A stretch of DNA of 64,000 bases from Plasmodiophora brassicae (Eukaryota): positions 1,054,001-1,118,000 of the forward strand of contig CP145413.1 of NCBI GenBank assembly GCA_036867785.1, in the 5' to 3' direction. Below are positions 10,540-25,551 of this stretch, one piece after another. The notes below the pieces were generated by a model. The model ran no database searches. It saw nothing but the letters and a program-made list of their open reading frames with translations, and was not told the origin of the DNA. The position numbers were made by a program, and so were the translations under genes. Position 1 is the stretch's first letter; every line of letters begins with the position of its first letter.

Positions 10540-11844
10540 ATGGGGCAACGGGAGACGATCGTGATCAACAGGAGCCGCGCGGTGCCTCTGTGAAGGGCTG
10601 CGTCGTCGTCCACCCTGGGCGAACCGTTCTGCAGTACGTACACACCAGCATGGCTGCTGTTCGATACGTTGGCGCCCTCGTCGACGGCCGCATGCACGGC
10701 CGGGGCAGGATCATCCTGACCGACGACGGGTCCGTCGTGTTCGACGGCACGTTTCGTCATGGCGCCCGGGATGGATCTGGGACGTTGGCGTTACCGAACA
10801 AGGTGACAGTGGCGGCGCCGACCGTTGCCCGGGTCACGCTCACGTGCAACAACAACCACAGATAACGGTGACGTCGCAGTGGGCGGATGACGCCCTGGCC
10901 GGCGAGGCTGTCATCAACGTCGACGGGAAGGAGACGTACCGAGGCGCCATGTGCAACGGGAGGCGAGACGGCCACGGGCGTAACGAGTACGAAGGGGTCG
11001 GCGTGTATGTTGGGGCGTTCCGCAACGACAAGGCAGTGTCCCCATGGACCGGTGGCGGTATGGCACCCTGACTGTGTTCCCAGAGGCACGGGCGAGGCGT
11101 CATGACGTTCCACTGCGATCGGGGCGAGTACGACGGCGAGTGGTCGCTGGACGAGATCACGGGCAAGGGCAAGGCGACGTTCAAACCGCAAGGGATCGTC
11201 GCCCAGGGCGAATGGCAACGTGGGATGCTGCACGGCCGCGGCTGCATACAGTTTGCCAACGACGACAGATACGAAGGCGAATTCTGCAACGGGATGCGAT
11301 CCGGTCAGGGCGTGCTTACGATGGCGAACGGCGACGCCTACGCTGGGCAATGGGACAGCGACCTACCCAACGGGGAAGGCCGGTTCACGTCCTCGAACGG
11401 AGATATCTTCACTGGCCGCGTAAGACGGCCATGCTGTACTTTACTGACATTGGGACTGTGCTGAGAATAGGATGACCTCAGTTCGTTTGTGGCCGCCGGC
11501 AGGGTCAGGGACAATTGCGAATAGCGTCAACGGGAGAGACGCTAACGGGTGAATGGGTCGACGACATGCTGACCGGGCCGGGGAAATCGGTCAGGGACGA
11601 CGGCACCGTCTACGAAGGCGATTTCCTAGATGGCGTCCGCCATGGGTTCGGGACACTGACGCCAGGCGGGGACAGCGCTGGCAGGTACGAAGGCGCCTGG
11701 GTGGCGGGACGCCGCCACGGTCGTGGCCGAATCGAACTGCCGGACGGGTCTACTGTTGTCGGCCAGTTCGACCAGGGCGCCCTCGTCCGTGTCCTCGAAT
11801 ACACGTTCGCACGGGATAGCCCATGGGCCGACCCGTCAACATAG
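10540..11844 (+). CDS. MORN-repeat protein (multi-exon)
   Basis: Many YxGxF/WxxGxxHGxG repeats (YVGALVDGRMHGRG, YEGEFCNGMRSGQG, YEGDFLDGVRHGFG, YEGAWVAGRRHGRG) across exons joined by short GT-AG introns. Stop TAG at 11842-11844. Confidence 0.9.
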
Positions 11845-11936
11845 CTCTAAACATGTGTCAGCCGCGTCATCAGCAGCTGTTATCCGTTCCGGATGACAGG
11901 AGGTTCGGACGCGTGAGGTACCTGCAGTCATCAAAC

Positions 11937-11962
11937 TGCGCGACTGTGGGCAGGTCTATTTT
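11937..11962 (+). promoter_or_regulatory. Putative upstream element, copy 1 (CGYGAC-N11-CTATTT)
   Basis: tgcgcgactgtgggcaggtctatttt begins 130 bp before ATG 12067. The same spaced motif occurs upstream of the two paralogues. Confidence 0.5.
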
Positions 11963-12066
11963 CAGGGCCCCCATTTAGGCTCGCACTTGCCACCACTTCA
12001 CTGCAGGGGCCCGACTGAGGGCCGATCCCCGGTTGCTGCCCGAGAAGCACGTGCGATTGCAGGCCG

Positions 12067-13693
12067 ATGCGTTTGGGCTTCGGCAGCGTCATCGTCGTCC
12101 TAGGTGTTGTGGCTGTCAGCGCGGTCGATACCCAGCGCGGCGTTGTCCAGGCGTGTGACAACAACGAGGACGACGACGGTGATGATGCCGCTGGGTCCCC
12201 AGTGACACTGCTGGGCAGCTCACTCGAATACGGCCATACGTTGAGTACGGCAGAGGATGAGTGTCCCTCAACCGCAGGCCTTGACGATGGGTTCTCACTA
12301 TCGGGCGACGCCGAAGGTGGACCCGGGACAGACGACTTCAGTCCCGGAAGTGACGACGACGCAACACTGCCCGATTCGGATGACCATGTTCCTATGTACT
12401 CAGCCGAGTCCAGCTGGCATGGTCGTTCCATGGCTGAATGGTTCAGGGACACGTCCCCAGATCCGCCCCCGAACCTTCCAAGGTCGCCCTCTGACAGGCA
12501 TGATGCCCTCCCAATGCAGAAGGGGTCTTTCGCCCACAACAACGGAGTGGACGTCAACGACGACTGGATCGGCATGGTACAACCGCGTCCCGAGCGCTGG
12601 TCACTGCTGTCGTCCGGTCTGGCTGCCGGTAGCCATCTTGTAGCACCCATGGCAGCGCCGCCAATCGAGGGCGATCCACCTCCTGCGTCACCTCGAACGT
12701 CATTGGAACATAGCGCAACCGATTCGGCGCTCCTTGATGGCTCGTCATCCAGCAAAGACGCCGTTATGAACCCTGACGAGCGCACACCGGCCTGTGACAT
12801 CATCCGCGTTCGTACGCCGCCACCCCGGCTTCGATCGGATTTGACTTCTGACCTGACGCCAACCCGCCCAAAGCGCTCCTATGCCCGTTCCAGATATGTA
12901 TACAATGGAGGCAGCAGACGGAGCAATTCGGGGGAACGTCTTCCTTCCGTTCGGTCCTGTCGCGTCCTGGAGCTGCCAGATCCACCGTCTTCCAAGAGCG
13001 CACCGGTGAACCCGACTATGCCTGACCTGGAGCTCCTTCCGCCCATGCGACTAGGTGACCTGAAGTTGATCTGCAATTTATCGACATCGGATCTGACAAC
13101 AGGCAGGTGTTGCAGATGACGATCCGCAATCCAGTCATCCCGAAGAACAATCGCAGCCACAGCTGTCGAGTGCCCCTGAGATTGACGAATCGCCGTTGGA
13201 TGAGGACGGGCCGCGTGGGTCTTCTGAGGCGACCCGCTCTGCAGGACAATCATCGGCCTCGCCATACGACCGCGTATCGCCACCTACACCACGATCGGGC
13301 AGAGTGCGTTTGTCGAGCGCTGCTGCTCTTGTAGTGTTTCCTGCTCTTGTGTGCTCGTATCTGATCATGGTGACGAAAGACTCGGCGCCAGGCAGGGTCG
13401 GGCAGCTTTGGCCGGCCGCCCCGGTTGTTCTGCCCGTTGCCTATCTCGCAGGTAGGCGTATCGGCAGGACACTGCACCGGAACAGGGTGCCCCCCATGCC
13501 GCTTGGCAATGCCATCAGATGGCGGCACACGTTCCCCGGGTCAACGACCGCGGGGGCCATGGAGTACTCACTTGCCTCCGTTATGTTCATGATAATCACC
13601 GCTTCCATGCACCTTCTGGCGACGTGGTTGACATCGTTCCCAAGGCTCTCCGGTGTCCCGTTCTATCCTGATCGCGTTGCGTTTGTCGACTGA
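12067..13693 (+). CDS. Tandem family paralogue A: signal peptide, acidic S/P/D-rich region, conserved 3-hydrophobic-segment C-terminal domain; exons 12067-13054 and 13116-13693 (~521 aa)
   Basis: N-terminus MRLGFGSVIVVLGVVAVSA. A phase-1 GT-AG intron (13055-13115; an alternative acceptor at 13106 is also in frame) joins the two ORFs in frame. The C-terminus contains PPMPLGNAIRWRHTFP and GVPFYPDRVAFVD. Confidence 0.8.
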
Positions 13694-13926
13694 TTTTCTG
13701 TGTACGTATACGATAAACTATTTGTATTTGTTTGTAAACTGGTGCAATTGCATCAGTAAAATGCAACAGTGCCCTAATAATCTGCAGCAGGGTTACACAT
13801 GATTGTTCCATCCAGCGCACACTGGATGCTTGGGCAATGCGCGCGCGTCTAGTACGAGCCACTCCTCCACCCAGCCCCGCCGTGGTATCCGATCCGGCAG
13901 ACGCACTTGAGGATTCCCCACCCGAT

Positions 13927-13952
13927 TGCGCGACTGGGGCGGGCCCTATTTC
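13927..13952 (+). promoter_or_regulatory. Putative upstream element, copy 2 (CGYGAC-N11-CTATTT)
   Basis: tgcgcgactggggcgggccctatttc begins 96 bp before ATG 14023. Its first 10 nt are identical to copy 1. Confidence 0.5.
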
Positions 13953-14022
13953 TGGTGGTATACCCAGGAAATTCTCATGTTCGCTCCGAACGTGGGCCCA
14001 GTCCTGTGTGGCGCCTGGCCCA

Positions 14023-15876
14023 ATGCACCGTCACGTTGGCCTCTGTGTACACGTCCTTGTCATAGTCGCTTCGGCCGGAGTAGACGACGACCGTACGGCC
14101 AACGAGTTCGCGCTGTGCAACCAGCGCTACGATACCGAACGTGATGGTAATGTCTCCGATTCAAAGCAGCAGTCGATTGCGATCGACAGTCCGCTAGACG
14201 CAGACGCTCCTGACGACGCATCGACCGTTTGCACATCAGAGGATGCACATTTAGATCTGGACCACGGGTATTGGACCCCGGTGGACGAACCTGGGACTGT
14301 CACTGACTATGACGACGAAGACCCTTCCGATGACGATTTATCGTCGTCTGCGTCAGACGACGATAACGACGTCGCCGGCGATTCCAGCTTATGCCAGTCA
14401 CAACCCCAGACGCAATCCGAAATGCCGAAGCTGGGCAGAAACGTGTTTGGAACGTCTAGGGCAACGGGACCAAGCCCTGACTCAGGCCCTTCGTTGCAAT
14501 CTTGGCGTCGAGGTGGTGCGTACCCCACGCCACAACCTGATCGTTGCCAGAGGACGACAACCCCAGTTGATCAGGCATCTGACCGCGGCATCGGGACGTT
14601 CCTACCAAGTCCTGTGCCAAGCCCTTCCAGAACGCTTTTTCATCAACGTCGTCCTCGCCTACAGACACATGCTGGATTCCTCCTGTCGCCGACGCCGTCG
14701 ACAAGTACCGGGAAGTCGGTGGCTCTAGGCGCCAGCAGCGGCGAGATTACAGGAAGCTGGGTACCACACGAAAGCCTGTTTGAGTCGACCGTGACAACCA
14801 GTCGATCTGAGGAGCAGAACCCCTTTCTAATTACTGTCCCCGCACCGAAGCACGAATACGCTCAGGTGCCTACCCCGCTCACGATTTCTCGTCAAGATGT
14901 TTCCTCCCCGCGCGATGGTTGCATCCCTGGATTCGTCGTTCCTGCTGACGTCACACCGCGGGCCAATAGCGGCGCCAAGATCATGGTCCCTCGATTTAAC
15001 GCAGGAGACGAAACGAACGTGACTGTGTCACAGTCTATTGAGCAAGCCGGCAAGAATGTACTCGGTACAGAGTTGCGCTCGAAGACCGCCGGACGTCCTC
15101 CTGCGCTCGATCAGTCCTTGCTCGCTACAGGTGACGACATGTTTTGATCTTGAAGCAGCACATGTTCTGACTGAGACCATTGTGTTACAGATGGTGGTTT
15201 TCAGTCAAGCGGTTTTGAAGATGGGCTGATTCCACAGGTGACAAGTGCTCTGGAGGATATCGAATATGTGCCGGCGCCCCTGTCGTCAGCGCCAGAGCGT
15301 TCTCATGGGTTAGGCGCCCCAGATGATCTTGGGCGACACGCAACTGCGGCAGGAGGGCGGCCAGATTCGCAAGCACCAATATCGACGAAAGCTCTTGGCG
15401 AGGCGGCACTAATCGCCGAGTCGTCATCGGAGTCGTCCTCGTCAGGTAGCCGACCACAGACTGTGGCAAAGCCGTCCACAGTGCCTCCCATGGTGCTAGT
15501 TATTGGTCTTATGCTGCTCTCCATCCCTGCAATCGAACTGACGACCAGGAAGCGCACGGTGAACCCGAGACCGAGCAAGTTGGGGACGCATTGGCCGATT
15601 GCAATGGCTGCCTTACCTCTAGCATACGTTGTTGGCAGGTACATTGGCAAGAGATATCGTTCGGTAACGCCACCGATGCTCCTTGGCGATGCCGACGTCG
15701 CCTGGCGTCATACGTTCCCGAAGCAGGCGGCTGCCGGGTTCATGGAGTACTGCGTTGCAGGCGTTATTCTTCTGATCGGCACGGTTGCCGTGCGCTGCCT
15801 GGCGACACGACTGACGTCGTCCCCATGGCTACCAGGTGTCCCGTTCTATCCCGACCACGTCACTTTTATCAACTGA
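14023..15876 (+). CDS. Tandem family paralogue B; exons 14023-15130 and 15191-15876 (~597 aa)
   Basis: N-terminus MHRHVGLCVHVLVIVASAG. A 60-bp phase-1 intron (15131-15190) restores the frame. The C-terminus contains PPMLLGDADVAWRHTFP and GVPFYPDHVTFIN. Confidence 0.8.
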
Positions 15877-16166
15877 TTCGTTCCTCGCAATCGTGAGCGA
15901 GGGCGTTCCTTCCGGTCCAAGAAGTCAGGCTGTAGCTGCCGTTGGCTATAGCAGAGTCAAGCTTGTGCAGTAGATGAAAAGCAGTGCGGCTGTGAACGAC
16001 GATAAATAACGAACGGGCAAGGCTGACAACAGTAGCCCTCTCTTTGATCGGAAATTCATGTGCTCATGCGGCAGGCTTGGTTCGTTCATCCATCAGGACG
16101 AGTGAGTCGCAGGGTGCTCTCCTTAGAGAACCATCACCATTCCCATAGGCCAAGGCACGCTAGCAA

Positions 16167-16192
16167 TTCGTGACGTGGGACGAAACTATTTT
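16167..16192 (+). promoter_or_regulatory. Putative upstream element, copy 3 (CGYGAC-N11-CTATTT)
   Basis: ttcgtgacgtgggacgaaactatttt begins 115 bp before ATG 16282, with the same spacing between half-sites. Confidence 0.45.
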
Positions 16193-16281
16193 TGGCGGCC
16201 TCGGCGATGGAATGTCCTGAAATTTGCCTGCTCCGACATGTGGCCTGCCGGCTCACGCTGGGAGCCCGGGTTTTCCATCCA

Positions 16282-18275
16282 ATGCATCCGGGCGCAGGCG
16301 TCTGTGTCCTCGCTGTCGTTGTCGTGACCGCCTGCGTGACTGACGGCTCTGACTGTTCGACACGCGTCCCTGGCGGTATCGAGGCCGACGCGCCTAATGA
16401 GGATGCCACCAGTGCAAAGCAGTCGGTGCCAGGTGGCGCGCACGCTCCCCTGCTCGGCAGCGATGTTGATCACATTCAGACAATGGCCTCGTCAGAGGAT
16501 GAGCAATCCTCAGACTCTGATCAAGAGGAGCATGGGGATTCAGACGACGAGGCCGGCGCAGAGACGGACTATCCCAGTGGCGAACCACCGTCAGACGCGG
16601 ATGACCCTTCGCCTATCCGCGCGTCCGATACCCCAGGTGTATTCACCAAGAGCCCTGAGCAGCGTCGATTGGTGAGGTCGGGTGCATGGATCAGGCCGTC
16701 GGATCAAGAGCGCGAGCACTCGAGCCGGTCCAGATCGACAGCTGGCCGTCGATCCGGTGAACGAATGACACCGGCTCCGACATTGCCGAACGAGGCTCCC
16801 AGTGTTCACTGCAGGGGGTTCCTGTCTTCTGATATCAACAGCGGCGCGGTTCAACCGGAGCAACCGTTGCCGCCACTCGGGTCAGCCAGTGGACGTCCCG
16901 ACAAGAACCCACTTATAGATTTCGCTCCAGAACCAACGTATGAGGCCGACCGGCCTCCTGCAACACAGCACCGCCCTCCAGAGCCTAGAACGACCACCGT
17001 ATACCAGGAACGTCGAGACAACACTCTCTCTCGCAAAGATGCTGATAGCAGGCCTGGCCTCCCAGCTGGTGGCTGGCGCACGCCTCCGCGCGTCCAGGCA
17101 CCGCCGGCGCCTCTCGGATTCGAATTGCCCCACGATGTCACTCCTCGCGTCCATCGTATTCATGCGCCTAGCGGAGACGACGAATCGAACGAGCCTGACG
17201 GACGTCTCCCTATGAAGCAAGTTGGCAAGGACCTTTTTAAGAATTGGACGCCGAAGAGCGACTCGACGAAGCAACCCCCCGCCTTGGAATATCCGGAATC
17301 TCCCTTCCATCAAGGTAACCTTATCAGCTGGCCGTCGCAGCGGTTTGACCTGATGGCCATTGCCATATTGTTGCAGTTGGAAGCCGACAAGGTCATCGCC
17401 TAGGAGACGTGTTTCAGCCGCAATTACCACGCGTCACTGAGCGTTCCGGTCCACAGCCAGCAGCGTCGACGCCAGGTGTACCAGGTTCTCCTGGAGCAGT
17501 GTCGCGAGTGCCCGAGTTGGCGCGTAGTGGGAGCCCATCAACCTCTGTCAGGGCTGCCACCTTCAGACACCAAGAGCAACAGGACGATGACCCCCAGGCC
17601 GTGCCGCAGCGCCTCGGGCTGCCTATCGACACGACGCCAGAATTCGGCCGACCGGCCCAACAAGGTATTGATCTGGAAGCGACACCATGTCTGATGCCCA
17701 ATCACTGTGTTGCAGATGAAGGCCCGGTAGAGTTTCCAGGGAAACTACCCAGGGTCGACCCTCAGCCAACCTTTAGACCATGTGGATCGCAGACGCCAGC
17801 GGCAGCCTCACAACGACCAGTGGCGTCGTCCTCAGTGGAACAATCGTCGCCTGCGACAAAGCCATCCCGAGCCCTCCTGTTGAAAGTACTTGCCGGCCTT
17901 ACGTTGCTGTCGTCTGCGCCTGCAGTCCGATTGGCGAGGAAGAAGGGCCTGGCGAACCCGAGGCCGAACAGGCTGGCGTCGTACTGGCCGGTTGCATTGG
18001 CCGCCCTGCCTCTGGGGTTCATTGCTGGCAGGTACATTGGCAAGAAGATACGCCGGTTGATCAGGATGCCGCCGATGCCGCTCGGCGATGCGAACCGGTG
18101 GCGCCATACGTTCCCGGAGAAGGCCAGCGCCGGCCTCGTGGCGTACTACGTTGCAGGCGTCACGATCCTGGCCAGCACGGTGGCCATGTGGTTCCTGGCA
18201 ACGTGGCTGACGTCGTTCCCGAGGTGGCCCGGCGTTCCGTTCTATCCTGACCGGGTCGCGTTCGTCTCCTACTGA
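16282..18275 (+). CDS. Tandem family paralogue C; exons 16282-17314 and 17377-18275 (~643 aa)
   Basis: N-terminus MHPGAGVCVLAVVVVTAC. A 62-bp phase-1 intron (17315-17376) restores the frame. The C-terminus contains PPMPLGDANRWRHTFP and GVPFYPDRVAFVSY. Confidence 0.8.
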
Positions 18276-18365
18276 TGATACATGAAACCGGGACGTATTA
18301 TATTGTGACCTGAACCGGGACTCAGCGAACCCGGACGAATGTGAAACCCAGGCTGTACCTCAGTA

Positions 18366-21300
18366 TCACTTCTGCGTCCCCGTACTGAACCGTCGCATTG
18401 CGAGCAGCGCGTTGAAACGTCGTCGTTCCGTCGCCAGCTCGTCGTCCTTGCTGTCGAGCTTGATCTCCGCCTGGGATCGGTACGTATCGATGCGCAACGC
18501 GATCTCGCGTTCGACGCGCTTGAATTCCTGACAGCGCATGTTTGCCAGCGAGTTGGTTTCGTCCCTGATCTCGGCAATCTGCCAGGTGAGTGCAAGGCGT
18601 GAGGCGCTGAGGGCTCAGTGAGGCAAAGGTCTTACCTGCTCCCGCAACTCCTTGCAGAGATTCAACACGTGCTTCAGTCCCGATGCCATAGACAGCAGCT
18701 TTTCGGCACGGGGCGCTTGCTCGTTCAACTGTCAGAATCATCAGCCAGGACGGAAAGCGTGTTCGTTGGCAGCGCACCTGGACCTGAGCCCGGTGTCTCG
18801 TGCATTCGACTTGCAGGGCCTGGATTGTTTGCAGTAGCGCAGAGCTTTCAGCTCGCTTCTCCTCGACCTCTTCCCGACACAATTCCAACGAGGTCTGGAC
18901 TTGACGCTTCTCATACTTGAGTGCCTACGTAGGTATTTAATCAGAACAACCGTACAACTAGCGTACACTTCGCCGAAAATGAACAGATGCACCTGAATAA
19001 CGTGCAGGTTCTCCTGCATGTCAGTTGTCTCCTGACAAGTCATATTCAGATATACATAACGCGAGAATCAAGCCTGGTTCACTCGTTACCTTCAACGTAT
19101 AGGCGGCAATGGTAGAGTCAAGCTCCAATATACGAGCCTAGGTAGGAACAGGTGAATGCCGAGGTGGACCAACACGCGGGAGGTAAAACCTTGGCAGTTT
19201 CCAACGATTCGGTAATGTCGTGATTATCGCAGAGGAGAGCTTGCCGCTCCAGTCGAAGAGACCCGTTCTCGTGGCGCAGCTTCTCGCAACGAGATTTCAG
19301 ATGGGATAGCTGACGTAAGGCTTCCTCGGTTTCCTGGACTTGATTGTGGTACTGTGCCAATTAGCTTCAGAGACGGCGCTAGTCAACTAGAATCGACCGG
19401 TATGTCTGCCTTATCATGTACACCAGCTAATTCCTCCTCGTATTGCGATGACGCCTGTCGCGCGTCCTGGTCGTGCTGATTGAACATGAGACATCAGGTA
19501 CCATTCAGCCAGCGAAGCCTCTCACCTTATCGGACAGTGCTGACAGGCGAGCTCGCAGAAAGACCACCCTAGAACCATAAGACAGGCGAGACGGCCTTGA
19601 CAGAATCGCCTGCCTACTCATTTGTTGCTCGGTGCAAGCGCACACTCATCCGCGAATGACTGTTGGTCAGCCCGTACAAGTGCACGTGCAACTGCTTGAT
19701 GCTGCCTTCGAGAGTCGCCAATCGAACACCTAACTGGGCAAGCTGCAGGTGCAGTGGAAGTTAAACTCAAGGTCCACGAATGCAAAGCACATCGACTGAC
19801 GAAAGCGCCCCACGTGGATTCCCATTCAGCAGACCTCCCGAGAAGATGAACAATGGCCTTTATAGCGCGACCCAAGTTGCCTATGCCCTGCGAGTTCGAC
19901 TTTCGAACGGTATGAAGCCGGCGGGAAACGGAGTCGAGGTGACCCTGCACGAATACCATCACATTACGTGAGGCACAGAATCAGCAGTGCCGGCGTACCA
20001 AAGCGAAACGGAGATCGTTGACGAGGTACGCGGCTGTCCCTTTTGATCCCTCCAGCGACGCATGAAGGTTTGACAGTTGATCACCGCTGTCGGTTTCTGC
20101 GACCTGAAGCGGTACCGGGCATAGTCGTAGTTCAGCACGCCGGAGATCGTTCCAGGGACCCAGCACAGCAGAAGCAGGGGCACGATCATCGGTATTGTCA
20201 GCGTGACAGGAAACAACGTCCCAGTACCGCCGGCGCCAACTGTGAACCTCCGACTCCAGGCTAGAAACCAGCTGGAATTGCAAGTTCGCCAGCGGCGTCA
20301 GCGCATCGTCGTTCGTGGGAGGAACGTCAACACTGCCAATCAGTCCGAGAAAGTTGGACGACAACAGGTTGCTGGGCAGGTCCTCATGCTCAGGGCATCT
20401 TGTCTTGCTCTGCCAGACCGCAACCTCAGATTCCAGGGCGTGGCAGCAACGAACTAATTCCGCTGCCCTGGTCAAAACCTCGGACCGCTGTAGCCGCTCA
20501 CCAGCAGCCAGCGAGCCGACTTCGGCAGCTAGGAGCAATGCCTGTCCAAGACGGGATCGCATGACTTCGCCCGTTGATTCATAACTGAACGTCATCCGAG
20601 AGACGATGCGTACAAGATGACCAGCATGACGAGACAGTACACAGACGTCAGGCTCGTCGAAGCGTCGTGAAACTGCCCTGAACCGCAATTCAGTTTCAAG
20701 GTTCTGTAGTTGAAGCGATTGCACCGAGAGCGTTCTGCAAGTGGACGCGAGCTCGGCTCGGAAATAGGCAGCCGACGCTGAAAATCGAGCAGCGAGTAAC
20801 AAAGAACGTGCCACGTACTGATTCAGCGCTTCGATAATGCGCTCATTGTCCCCAAACGTCTTGGCGCAACATTGGACGTGGTCGACGAACTTTCGTTGGG
20901 CAGCACGCTCGCGATAAATGGATTCCGATAAAGCGCGTGAAAGCGTTCCATAGTGGAGGTTTGACGTGAGATCGGCGAGACACATCGAGAGGTCCCATTG
21001 TCGGATCCGAGAAGCAGCTACTAATTGTCGCAGCTCGGCGACCTTGGCATCGGTCTCAAGTTGTCGTTTGCACAGAGCCTGGAACTCCATTCGGCTCCTC
21101 GAAGCGACTTGCTGTGCATCGGATGCCAACTTCATCGCTTGCCTGACGACCTCTGTATGAAACACGTCGACGCAGCGAGTTGATGAACCACATGTGCAGT
21201 GCTTACACAGGGCGAGCCTCTGCCACCGTTGGACTTCAGCTTCCAGCATGCCGATAGCTTCGTGCTGCTTGGAAATTGTAAACCGCATCTAACAGGGTTC

Positions 21301-22802: not shown

Positions 22803-23321
22803 TGCCGGAGCGGGCCGATGTCGTAACAGTCGGGAGTCGGGACTCGGGACGCGAAGATGGCGCCAAAAAGATCGTCGTTCGCTTCAGCGTCAGTTCGTCT
22901 GACAAAAATATGGTAACAACTGCGGGCGCGCCCGCGGGAAACCCAGATGCAAGGAGCGGTGTTCCGGCTCCACACGCAAAGGCGGATGCTTCATCCGACG
23001 TCGTTTCATAAGCAACGCCCTTATGGTCTTGGCATATCAAACTGTACTGATGATGCCACTAGTCTGCTAGAAGAGCATTCAACCGACCTGCACACCGGAG
23101 ACAGCGCATCGACGTTGCAAACCTACCGGTACTATTGTAGCAGCAAGGACGTTCCGGGAGTTTGGAAAACATGCTGGAGGGTGGTGAGCAGACAGTGTGA
23201 CGAGCAAGAATTCGGTACGAACCGGGCTGCGGTTCCGTCATTACTAGCCGACAAAGCGATGACCTAGGGCGTCCTCGTACTGTAAAACAAGCTTCACCGA
23301 TCGTCGCCGCCGAGCAGGTCC

Positions 23322-25551
23322 ATGGACGGTAACCTCTCCGTCGACAGTTCGCACGATGACGTCGACAACAAGAACGACGAAAGCGACCGCGACACGCGAT
23401 CCACCTCGAAAGACGACCATAGTCAGTCCCTGCGCACGCCCCACACACCGTCCATGCCGCCAGTGGCCGCCCGTTATGAACAGCCGGCGCCGAAATCGCC
23501 ACGTCCAGCCGCCAATCTCGTGTCGAGGCACTCAAACGGCACCGTCAGGGACCAGTCTCGAGCGGCCACCGCCGGCGACGCTTCAGTCGCCAGCTCAGGC
23601 GCACGCGATCTGGCAGCGGCCACCAGACGCTCGCTTGTATCCAACATCATCCAGGACCTGTTCTTTTACATCATCTTCCTCATCCTGTTCGTCGTTGCCA
23701 TCATGCTGCGCTCGCCGCAATCGTTGCCCTCCGAATGGAGACTAACGCTGCAGAGCCGGTTTGCACCGACCGAGCAACAGCTTGTCAACCACGACGCCAT
23801 GCCGTTCGACGATATCAACTCTCGCGAGGACGTCTGGTCGTACCTGAAGCTGACGTTGGCCCCCGCCCTGGTTCCTGATCCCGCGTCGCCACTCTCCAAC
23901 GCACCCTTGTTCCTGCGATCCGTCCTCGTTGGGTCCATTCGGCTCTGGCAGGTTCGCGTGCACAAGGAATCGTGCCCGTCGCACCTGAACGTCATCATGT
24001 CGAACCTTGGTGGCGCGCAGGTCACCTGCTTCCCAGAGAGCCTAACAGCAGGGACGACGTCACAGGATTCATACGGCGGCCCCGATAATTCCCTGTTCGA
24101 GTGGACGGGCCCACCCCAGAAGAGCGTTAACATGTGGCTCGTGGCACCCGACAGCCAGTATGGATCAGGAGGCGGGTTCAGCCAGTTCCTGTCGACCAAT
24201 CTGACAACGTCGACGGCGCTGCTGTCGTACCTGGAGTCCAACGACTGGATCGACCTTCAGACGCGCGCCGTCTTCGTCGATTTCGCATTGCACAACCCGA
24301 CCGAGCGCCTCTTCTGCATGGTCCGCCTGCTGTTCCAGACGCCAGCGTATGGTGGTGTGCAGGCAATCAGCAGCTTCAGGGTGGCGGCTGTTATGATGTA
24401 CAGTACACCGTCGGACATCGTCGCAGCCGTCTTCGAAGGGCTGTTCATCGTCGCGTACCTGAGGATGCTCCGGGCGACGATCAGCGAGATTCGCCGATCG
24501 GGACGGTCGTTCTTCACGAGCGTCTGGGGCATCATTGACCTGCTTAACAGCATTATCTTCGCCATGATCATCATCCTGAGCGTCATAACGCGGTCGTGCG
24601 CGTCGTCTCTGTACAGCCGGATCGACACCGACGCGTACGTCAACTGGCAGAACTACGGGTACATGTCGAATCAGCTGAAGAACCTCGGTGCCTTCAATGC
24701 CGTCCTCTCCTGGATACGGGTACGTCCACACATGTTCGCAGCGGGCACACCAGGCAGTGACACGGGACGCCTCAATCAGTTACTGAAGTACCTGAGGTTA
24801 TCGGCCCGACTGTCGATGCTGGAGAAGGTGTTCGTCAACGTCAAGAGCGAGCTGTTCGCGTGGGCGACGCTTTTCCTGGTCATATTCAGCAGCTTCGTGC
24901 AAGCGTTCTACATGGGGTTCCATGAATCCGTCAGCGACTACCAGTCGCTGGGCATGGCCATCATGACCCTGTTCAAGGGCGCGTTCGGCGACCTTGTCGT
25001 CACCGAGTTGCAGGCCGAGAATCAGATCCTCGGCCCGATCTTCTTCATGGCCTACATCTTCGTCATGTTCTTCGTCATGCTGAACATGTTCCTTGCGTCA
25101 GTTGCAATGCGCCCTGGCAACACGCAACGCTGTCCCTGGAACTAACCCACGTCGCAGGATTCTGCAAGGCGCCTGGATAAAGACGGAAGAGGACATCCAA
25201 GGTGAGCAGAAGGACGGGTTAAAGGCGGCGCTGGACGAGGCCATCATGAACGCCAAGAACCAGTATCGCGAGCGCCGCAAGACCGTCGTCAGCCACATGG
25301 TCATCAGCGGGATCCGAACGAAACCGGCGCTGCGGCAGACGGGCGCGACGCCGCGATCCCCGGCCGCCATGCGGCGCGTGTCCCTCGGGCCCACGTCGCC
25401 AGGCGCCGGCGTCGGGACGCCGACGCCGCGCCACGCCCTGATCCTGACGCCCAGGCAGATGGACATCGTCGAGGCCGCCCTCGCCAACATGAGCCCGGAA
25501 GAGTTGTCCGAGTCTGACAGCGACGACGATTCCGGGTACCTAGATGAATAA
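23322..25551 (+). CDS. PKD2: Polycystin-2 (PKD2/TRPP)-like cation channel; introns 24720-24779 and 25097-25157
   Basis: Motifs present: FDDINSREDVWSYL, LVGSIRLWQVRV, LESNDWIDLQTRAVFVDFALHN, LLKYLR, TLFKGAFGD, ILGPIFFMAYIFVMFFVMLNMFLAIL. These are the polycystin TOP domain plus six-TM channel signature. Confidence 0.92.

Follow-up and report, generated by a model that had tools for sequence, protein, structure and literature searches.

The stretch of DNA analysed here (the window) comprises 64,000 nucleotides of the genome of Plasmodiophora brassicae, the clubroot agent (contig CP145413.1, forward strand, positions 1,054,001 to 1,118,000); it is eukaryotic DNA with 54-64% G+C. Between positions 12067 and 18275, three paralogous genes follow one another on the plus strand, each appearing in the list of open reading frames (ORFs) as a long ORF and, after it, a second one coding for the C-terminus. 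The initial annotation, made from the sequence alone, had proposed models of 521, 597 and 643 amino acids with phase 1, GT..AG introns of 61, 60 and 62 nucleotides, and these models were reproducible from the sequence. The three proteins share the same layout, namely a signal-like N-terminal segment, a long acidic region of low complexity and a conserved C-terminal module. The existence of three paralogues, their layout and the conserved module all stood up to the analysis, while the splicing details and an early cysteine attributed to the family did not. The family is real: it places an orphan, undescribed module on a known kind of architecture, and the evidence does not support the variant-antigen-like system that had been suggested.

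The C-terminal module of about 131 amino acids is coded by positions 13298-13690 in gene 1, 15478-15873 in gene 2 and 17862-18272 in gene 3. Alignment of the three copies revealed 48 invariant columns, with identities to gene 1 of 46% and 51%, and comparison of the C-termini by tblastn gave E-values of 1e-28 to 4e-42, which indicates a similarity far beyond chance. The four near-invariant motifs reported in the initial annotation were recovered in all three copies, the PPMxLG..WRHTFP motif of gene 2 containing one extra residue. Across these copies and a fourth paralogue described below, 34 columns remained invariant, including W-P, PP..LG.A..WRHT.P, AG...Y and VPFYP..V.F. The core of the module showed dN/dS values of 0.21-0.35 between the window copies, with dS of 0.75-1.4. 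These estimates indicate that the array genes are old duplicates and that their module is under purifying selection, as had been proposed from the third-position differences.

Hydrophobic segments were defined by a Kyte-Doolittle window of 19 residues with a value of at least 1.2. Each of the proteins 1 to 3 contains four of them, one at the N-terminus and three in the module, in agreement with the earlier description of the C-terminal domain. The net charge of the module ranges from +4 to +15. In gene 3, the loop between segments 1 and 2 carries six lysine or arginine residues and no aspartate or glutamate, and the loop between segments 2 and 3 carries nine versus two, as counted by eye on the alignment of the four paralogues. 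Modeling of the module with AlphaFold2 from an alignment of five sequences predicted three long helices (residues 3-27, 39-67 and 87-118) with low confidence (pLDDT 57.7, pTM 0.28). The module ends in a conserved tail that is not hydrophobic (VPFYP..V.F). A glycosylphosphatidylinositol (GPI) anchor was ruled out because the C-terminus consists of this tail following a conserved module of 130 amino acids.

A profile built from the three C-termini was then used to search 1,835,955,588 representative proteins. This search gave three matches: ORF fragments of gene 2 (P0127) and gene 1 (P0128) of the window, and a protein of 544 amino acids (P0129) that is not coded in the window. The latter is a fourth paralogue from Plasmodiophora brassicae, found under the cluster names 'Uncharacterized protein PBTT_03663' and 'hypothetical protein PBRA_006148'. 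Its two records, of 541 and 544 amino acids (CEO98034.1 and XXQ33203.1), have the same three-part layout, with 42-44% identity in the module. Paralogue 4 probably lies on the same chromosome as gene 2, the contigs carrying P0129 and P0127 both measuring 1,544,657 bp. The full-length product of gene 3 belongs to a cluster whose representative is the exon-1 ORF without the module; exact look-up of this ORF led to a cluster member of 626 amino acids (P0137; CEO98108.1 = XXQ33284.1, PBRA_006222 / PBTT_03744, 'uncharacterized protein'). The public records of gene 3 and paralogue 4 carry no function or family. Gene 2 is public only as a model of 128 amino acids in one annotation (P0127), starting inside the C-terminal module, and no full-length public model of gene 1 was found; the public models of both genes look incomplete.

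The other collections gave no relative of the family. None of six protein pieces (the three exon-1 parts and the three C-terminal parts) matched Pfam-A at E ≤ 1, and the best E-value of the module profile among the sequences of the Protein Data Bank (PDB) was 1.9, in keeping with the earlier statement that no known domain is present. The ESM Atlas gave no usable match for the module or for full-length gene 3, whose structural neighbours had TM scores of at most 0.17 and were disregarded. Among the JGI metagenome contigs, 222 pattern matches were obtained and none was confirmed by tblastn. A search for longer homologues with the C-terminal piece of gene 3 and the module profile returned nothing; it missed even the known paralogue of 544 amino acids and is uninformative, the candidates having been chosen by shared words and the relevant ones crowded out. 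In the main text of the literature searched, PBRA_006148, PBRA_006219 to PBRA_006222, PBTT_03744, PBTT_03663, CEO98108, CEO98034, A0A0G4IRZ5 and A0A0G4IS95 were not found (PBRA_006219 to PBRA_006221 being guessed neighbouring numbers), and the identifiers searched were also absent from the supplements of PMC12503489 (12 files) and PMC8595600 (1 file). A broad search of the literature on plasmodial envelope or surface proteins yielded nothing relevant. From these data, the family appears to be lineage-restricted, with four members, detected only in Plasmodiophora brassicae in the collections searched; the count is based on the protein collections and on the window, in which tblastn identified three loci. 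This strengthens the proposal of a duplicated, lineage-specific family, paralogue 4 being the only member that the profile found outside the window.

The structure of the genes was further analyzed with contigs from four sequencing runs of four studies (X1, X2, X3 and X12), aligned to positions 11800-18700; that these runs are RNA is a guess. For gene 3, one contig in each of the four runs spans the coding region entirely or for the most part, positions 17315-17376 and 17665-17715 being spliced out. The gene is composed of exon 1 (16282..17314), coding for the signal-like N-terminus (about 16282-16335) and an acidic Pro-rich region, intron 1 (17315..17376; 62 nucleotides, phase 1, GT..AG), exon 2 (17377..17664), coding for a probably disordered region and supported by the contigs and by the match to P0137, intron 2 (17665..17715; 51 nucleotides, in frame, GT..AG), and exon 3 (17716..18275), which contains the module and the stop codon. 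The product has 626 amino acids, not 643, and is letter for letter P0137, whose public model uses the same ATG.

For gene 1, a contig lacking positions 13055-13106 was present in three of the four runs, while X12 gave no cover of this gene. Exon 1 (12067..13054) codes for the signal-like N-terminus (about 12067-12126) and an acidic Ser/Pro-rich region; it is an ORF model, partially covered by the contigs of X1, X2 and X3, which place its end at 13054. The intron (13055..13106; 52 nucleotides, phase 1, GT..AG) is defined by the joint 13054|13107, and exon 2 (13107..13693) contains the module and the stop codon. The acceptor used in the contigs lies 9 nucleotides upstream of the one chosen previously (13115), and the product has consequently 524 amino acids instead of 521; low-level use of the acceptor at 13115 would not be visible in the contigs. 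The rule of exactly one intron of 60-62 bp per gene thus fails for gene 1, with its intron of 52 nucleotides, and for gene 3, with two introns. In gene 1, the 9-mer GTGTTGCAG belongs to exon 2 (13107-13115), and in gene 3 it forms the 3′ end of intron 2 (17707-17715), which indicates that the acceptor was shifted by 9 nucleotides between the paralogues.

Genes 1 and 3 are therefore spliced and present in transcript-like contigs from several studies. The origin of the contigs from spliced RNA is supported by the neighbouring gene on the minus strand (18322-18924), in which a stretch of 57 nucleotides (18579-18635, CT..AC on the plus strand) was spliced out in three of the four runs. This gene converges on the array from downstream, and by eye its translation is coiled-coil-like. 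The short introns of the array fit the organism, since an average intron length of 60 bp is given for Plasmodiophora brassicae in PMC4471660. Two further features were seen in the region covered by the contigs. An open frame of 315 codons on the minus strand (11931-12878), antisense to exon 1 of gene 1, probably arises as a side effect of the G+C-rich coding sequence; the joints, with their GT..AG orientation, indicate transcripts of the plus strand. One X3 contig runs unbroken across 15856-16282, from the last 20 nucleotides of the gene 2 coding region through the intergenic region to gene 3; it could represent a long 5′ untranslated region (UTR) of gene 3 or overlapping UTRs that were assembled together.

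The structure of gene 2 is a prediction, with exon 1 at 14023..15130, an intron at 15131..15190 (60 nucleotides, phase 1, GT..AG) that takes out two in-frame stop codons, and exon 2, containing the module, at 15191..15876, for a predicted product of 597 amino acids. Except for an 18-nucleotide match (14640-14657) in contigs that continue unlike the window, the contigs of the four runs give no cover of this gene, which is uninformative on its expression. The expectation that the three genes are transcribed and spliced was consequently borne out for genes 1 and 3, in forms differing from those predicted, and gene 2 stays at the level of its model. The intron position in gene 2 looks homologous to that of the gene 1 intron and of intron 2 of gene 3, as judged from the TTGATCT and CTGA words shared by eye and from their location (phase 1, just before an acidic residue). 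An alternative acceptor giving an intron of 45 nucleotides was judged unlikely by eye, being located only 4 nucleotides past the branch-like CTGAC. The start codon of gene 2 was picked because it makes the protein resemble the other copies; starting further upstream, at the in-frame ATG at 13837, would yield 659 amino acids without an N-terminal hydrophobic segment. A direct repeat of 25 nucleotides, 76% identical, was observed at 11937-11961 and 13927-13951, about 130 nucleotides 5′ of the gene 1 ATG and about 96 nucleotides 5′ of the ATG at 14023. This repeat may be a promoter element common to both genes, in which case the start at 14023 would be preferred over 13837, or it may be due to chance.

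In all four paralogues, a hydrophobic stretch begins among the first 10 residues; small residues come next, and after them acidic sequence. Candidate cleavage sites were located by eye at VSA|V, SAG|V, TAC|V and AVA|I. The early cysteine is not a family feature: paralogue 4 has no cysteine before about residue 92, and the few cysteines are not conserved in the four-way alignment. The middle regions are 368-468 residues long, with 7.7-11.4% aspartate, 11-15% serine, 9-15% proline and 17-22% serine plus threonine, and have a net charge of -16 to -32. Order-promoting residues represent 16-21% of these regions, and the model of gene 3 made by the ESM Atlas itself has a mean pLDDT of 0.41 and a pTM of 0.18. 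The acidic middle region is probably disordered. Pairwise blastp of the middle regions gave a best E-value of 6e-4 (gene 2 versus gene 3, 30% over 106 residues) and E-values above 0.6 for all other pairs, so that its description as D/S/P-rich and barely alignable holds. The residues that can be aligned are 17-30% identical and dS is saturated, making an estimate of selection meaningless in this part of the proteins.

Taken together, these properties lead us to favour, with slightly less than an even chance of being right, a reading in which the array consists of three intact tandem paralogues coding for secretory-pathway membrane proteins that display a disordered acidic domain at the surface of the parasite. 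The N-terminal segment would act as a cleavable signal peptide, so that the acidic region would be threaded into the lumen of the endoplasmic reticulum (ER) and end up exoplasmic. The first helix of the C-terminal module would stop the transfer, and the module would anchor the protein in the membrane. The module would also bear the conserved function, which may be sorting, self-packing or the binding of a conserved parasite partner. The protein would then reach the surface membrane of the parasite, which faces the host cytoplasm in the plasmodium stage and the wall in spores. The outer domain would work by its bulk properties, namely negative charge, extension and possibly O-glycosylation, and without a fold; the proposal is that it drifts fast yet keeps its composition because it acts in this way.

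Several points weigh against this reading. The signal peptide and the orientation are predicted from hydropathy and the positive-inside rule, and the step from architecture to a surface location, including the choice of the target membrane, is a deduction from the architecture. The first of the hydrophobic segments in the module is under the threshold in paralogue 4. Both loops flanking hydrophobic segment 2 are strongly basic, which leaves two options, a segment that is not membrane-spanning or a violation of the positive-inside rule; two or three spans, and either side for the C-terminal tail, are thus compatible with the sequence. The structure model of the module is of low confidence. Neither expression level nor life stage can be read from contigs, and the runs were assigned to RNA with a question mark. 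Finally, 'only in Plasmodiophora' is a weak claim that may really mean phytomyxid: the best non-self match in the collection for a housekeeping neighbour of the array, the CBF/Mak21 gene, is only 38% identical, which indicates that close relatives (e.g. Spongospora, Polymyxa) seem poorly represented there.

Three other explanations were considered, in the following decreasing order of probability: a location in the spore wall or an internal compartment, a diversifying variant-surface family, and a non-secretory topology. We take the last one first. The N-terminal segment may serve as a signal anchor or direct the protein to an organelle, leaving the acidic region in the cytosol, where it could for instance act as a scaffold at the membrane of an organelle. 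Cytosolic scaffolds commonly contain long disordered acidic regions, the signal peptide is predicted from hydropathy, and by eye the topology based on charges is ambiguous. However, the short N-terminal hydrophobic stretch, the small residues and the acidic sequence kept by 4/4 paralogues correspond to the usual layout of cleavable signals, and the basic loops of the module fit the cytosolic side, opposite to the acidic region. We consider a cytosolic acidic region very improbable.

The architecture that points to the parasite surface fits equally well with proteins of the spore wall or of an internal compartment that do not face the host. They could be linkers between membrane and wall, components of wall assembly or sensing in zoospore cysts or resting spores, or acidic proteins of a lumen with a role such as ion buffering, their acidic domain lying within the wall or lumen. 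Fungal wall-stress sensors and plant proline-rich wall-associated proteins combine a signal peptide with a rod rich in Ser/Thr/Pro and an anchor in the membrane. In the fungal sensors Wsc1 and Mid2, the signal peptide precedes an extended outer rod that is rich in Ser/Thr, and the part of the anchor region lying in the cytosol is conserved. The array proteins resemble them in the signal-like N-terminus, the extended outer region and the membrane anchor, but contain several helices instead of one span plus a tail, and show no sequence relationship; for the Cys-rich N-terminal WSC domain, no Pfam match was obtained. The contigs come from runs with four organism codes, in keeping with expression in infected tissue, in which spores are formed as well. 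Pfam detected no wall-binding domain (WSC, chitin-binding) in any of the six protein pieces, and the evidence at hand fits wall and surface alike. On balance, a wall or internal location is rather unlikely, although it ranks first among the alternatives to a surface location.

The initial annotation had compared the array to variant surface or effector families, with an exposed domain under host-driven positive selection. The divergence of the outer domains past detectable similarity, next to a conserved anchor, is in line with this idea, and the organism is an intracellular biotroph (PMC4471660). The two public records of paralogue 4 differ by 14 residues and a 3-residue indel in about 541 amino acids, which gives the impression, without a genome-wide baseline, of being many for one species. 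The distribution of these differences does not follow the expectation: 11 fall in the 419 residues upstream and 3 in the 125 residues of the module, which shows that the variation is no denser in the outer part. Furthermore, the 626-aa protein of gene 3 is one and the same sequence under accessions with two locus-tag prefixes (PBRA and PBTT, from two public annotations), and the contigs of all four runs list no base difference and no indel relative to the window over genes 1 and 3. Isolate variation concentrated in the exposed region was thus not observed, in a small sample of two records or four runs. The large copy number of variant antigens is also lacking, the family counting, besides the three loci of the window, a single additional paralogue among 1.84 billion representatives, and the dS values speak for old duplicates. 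By eye, the four-way alignment revealed no conserved host-targeting motif after the signal-like segment.

As far as the 64-kb window shows, the genomic setting also speaks against a variant-surface family, the neighbours being housekeeping or ordinary eukaryotic genes (PHD-finger/chromodomain, CBF/Mak21, polycystin-type channel, TAF2, MAP65, THADA). The RIFIN, STEVOR and Pfmc-2TM families of Plasmodium are large, subtelomeric and variable between isolates, with an export motif and tens to hundreds of members per genome. Like them, the present family occurs in an intracellular parasite and combines a signal-like sequence with a variable region, hydrophobic segments towards the C-terminus and a basic C-terminal part that is conserved. 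Unlike them, it counts only four old paralogues and has housekeeping neighbours; gene 3 varies little or not at all between isolates, and no motif common to the proteins follows the signal-like segment. We conclude that host-driven diversification is improbable here. From the earlier interpretation, the lineage-restricted duplicated family and the contrast between a conserved module and a diverged region are retained, and the variant-surface analogy is dropped. Two observations on the neighbourhood are added for completeness. Downstream, about 5 kb from the array, the ORF at 23286-25145 has Pfam matches to a polycystin domain (E 7e-27) and to a polycystin-type cation channel (E 2e-25). Upstream, the gene at 10565-11844 on the plus strand contains YEGE/G..G.G repeat units that are MORN-like by eye.

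Turning back to the favoured placement at the parasite surface, parasite mucins are among the nearest known systems. The mucins of Trypanosoma cruzi and the mucin-like glycoproteins of Cryptosporidium possess a signal peptide, a fast-evolving Ser/Thr/Pro-rich outer region and a conserved membrane attachment. These families have many members, are held by a GPI anchor or a single span, and their outer part works by bulk properties. The array proteins are alike in the signal-like N-terminus, the low-complexity fast-evolving outer part and the conserved attachment, and they have the long Ser/Thr/Pro-rich outer domain of mucin-like type I proteins. They differ by an anchor of 130 residues with multiple helices, three hydrophobic segments in genes 1 to 3 taking the place of a single span or GPI anchor, by the strongly acidic outer part and by the number of genes, which is four. 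No sequence relationship to parasite mucins was found in Pfam or among the 1.84 billion representatives. The likenesses to parasite mucins, to the Plasmodium 2TM families and to fungal wall sensors concern the layout only.

Clubroot ranks among the major diseases of Brassica crops, and the parasite behind it lives naked within the host cells. To our knowledge, what covers its surface is very poorly known. We have also considered a bolder proposal, that the module is an invention of the clubroot lineage which tethers fast-evolving acidic disordered domains to the surface of the plasmodium, so that they would project into the host cytoplasm as membrane-bound host-interface factors, a class that effector catalogues would systematically miss; this we hold to be doubtful. 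Effector screens in P. brassicae keep proteins with a signal peptide and drop those with predicted transmembrane segments (PMC4471660; TurboID preprint 10.1101/2025.11.18.684874). A membrane-tethered family is excluded by design from screens of this kind, and the transmembrane filter would explain why the present family went unnoticed. Its interest is moderate, and it is worth a correction of the public models: in practical terms, those of genes 1 and 2 could be corrected. If the proteins belong to the spore wall or to an internal compartment, they would form an ordinary orphan family. If they are located at the surface of the parasite, the invariant C-terminal tail would provide a handy epitope for marking that membrane.

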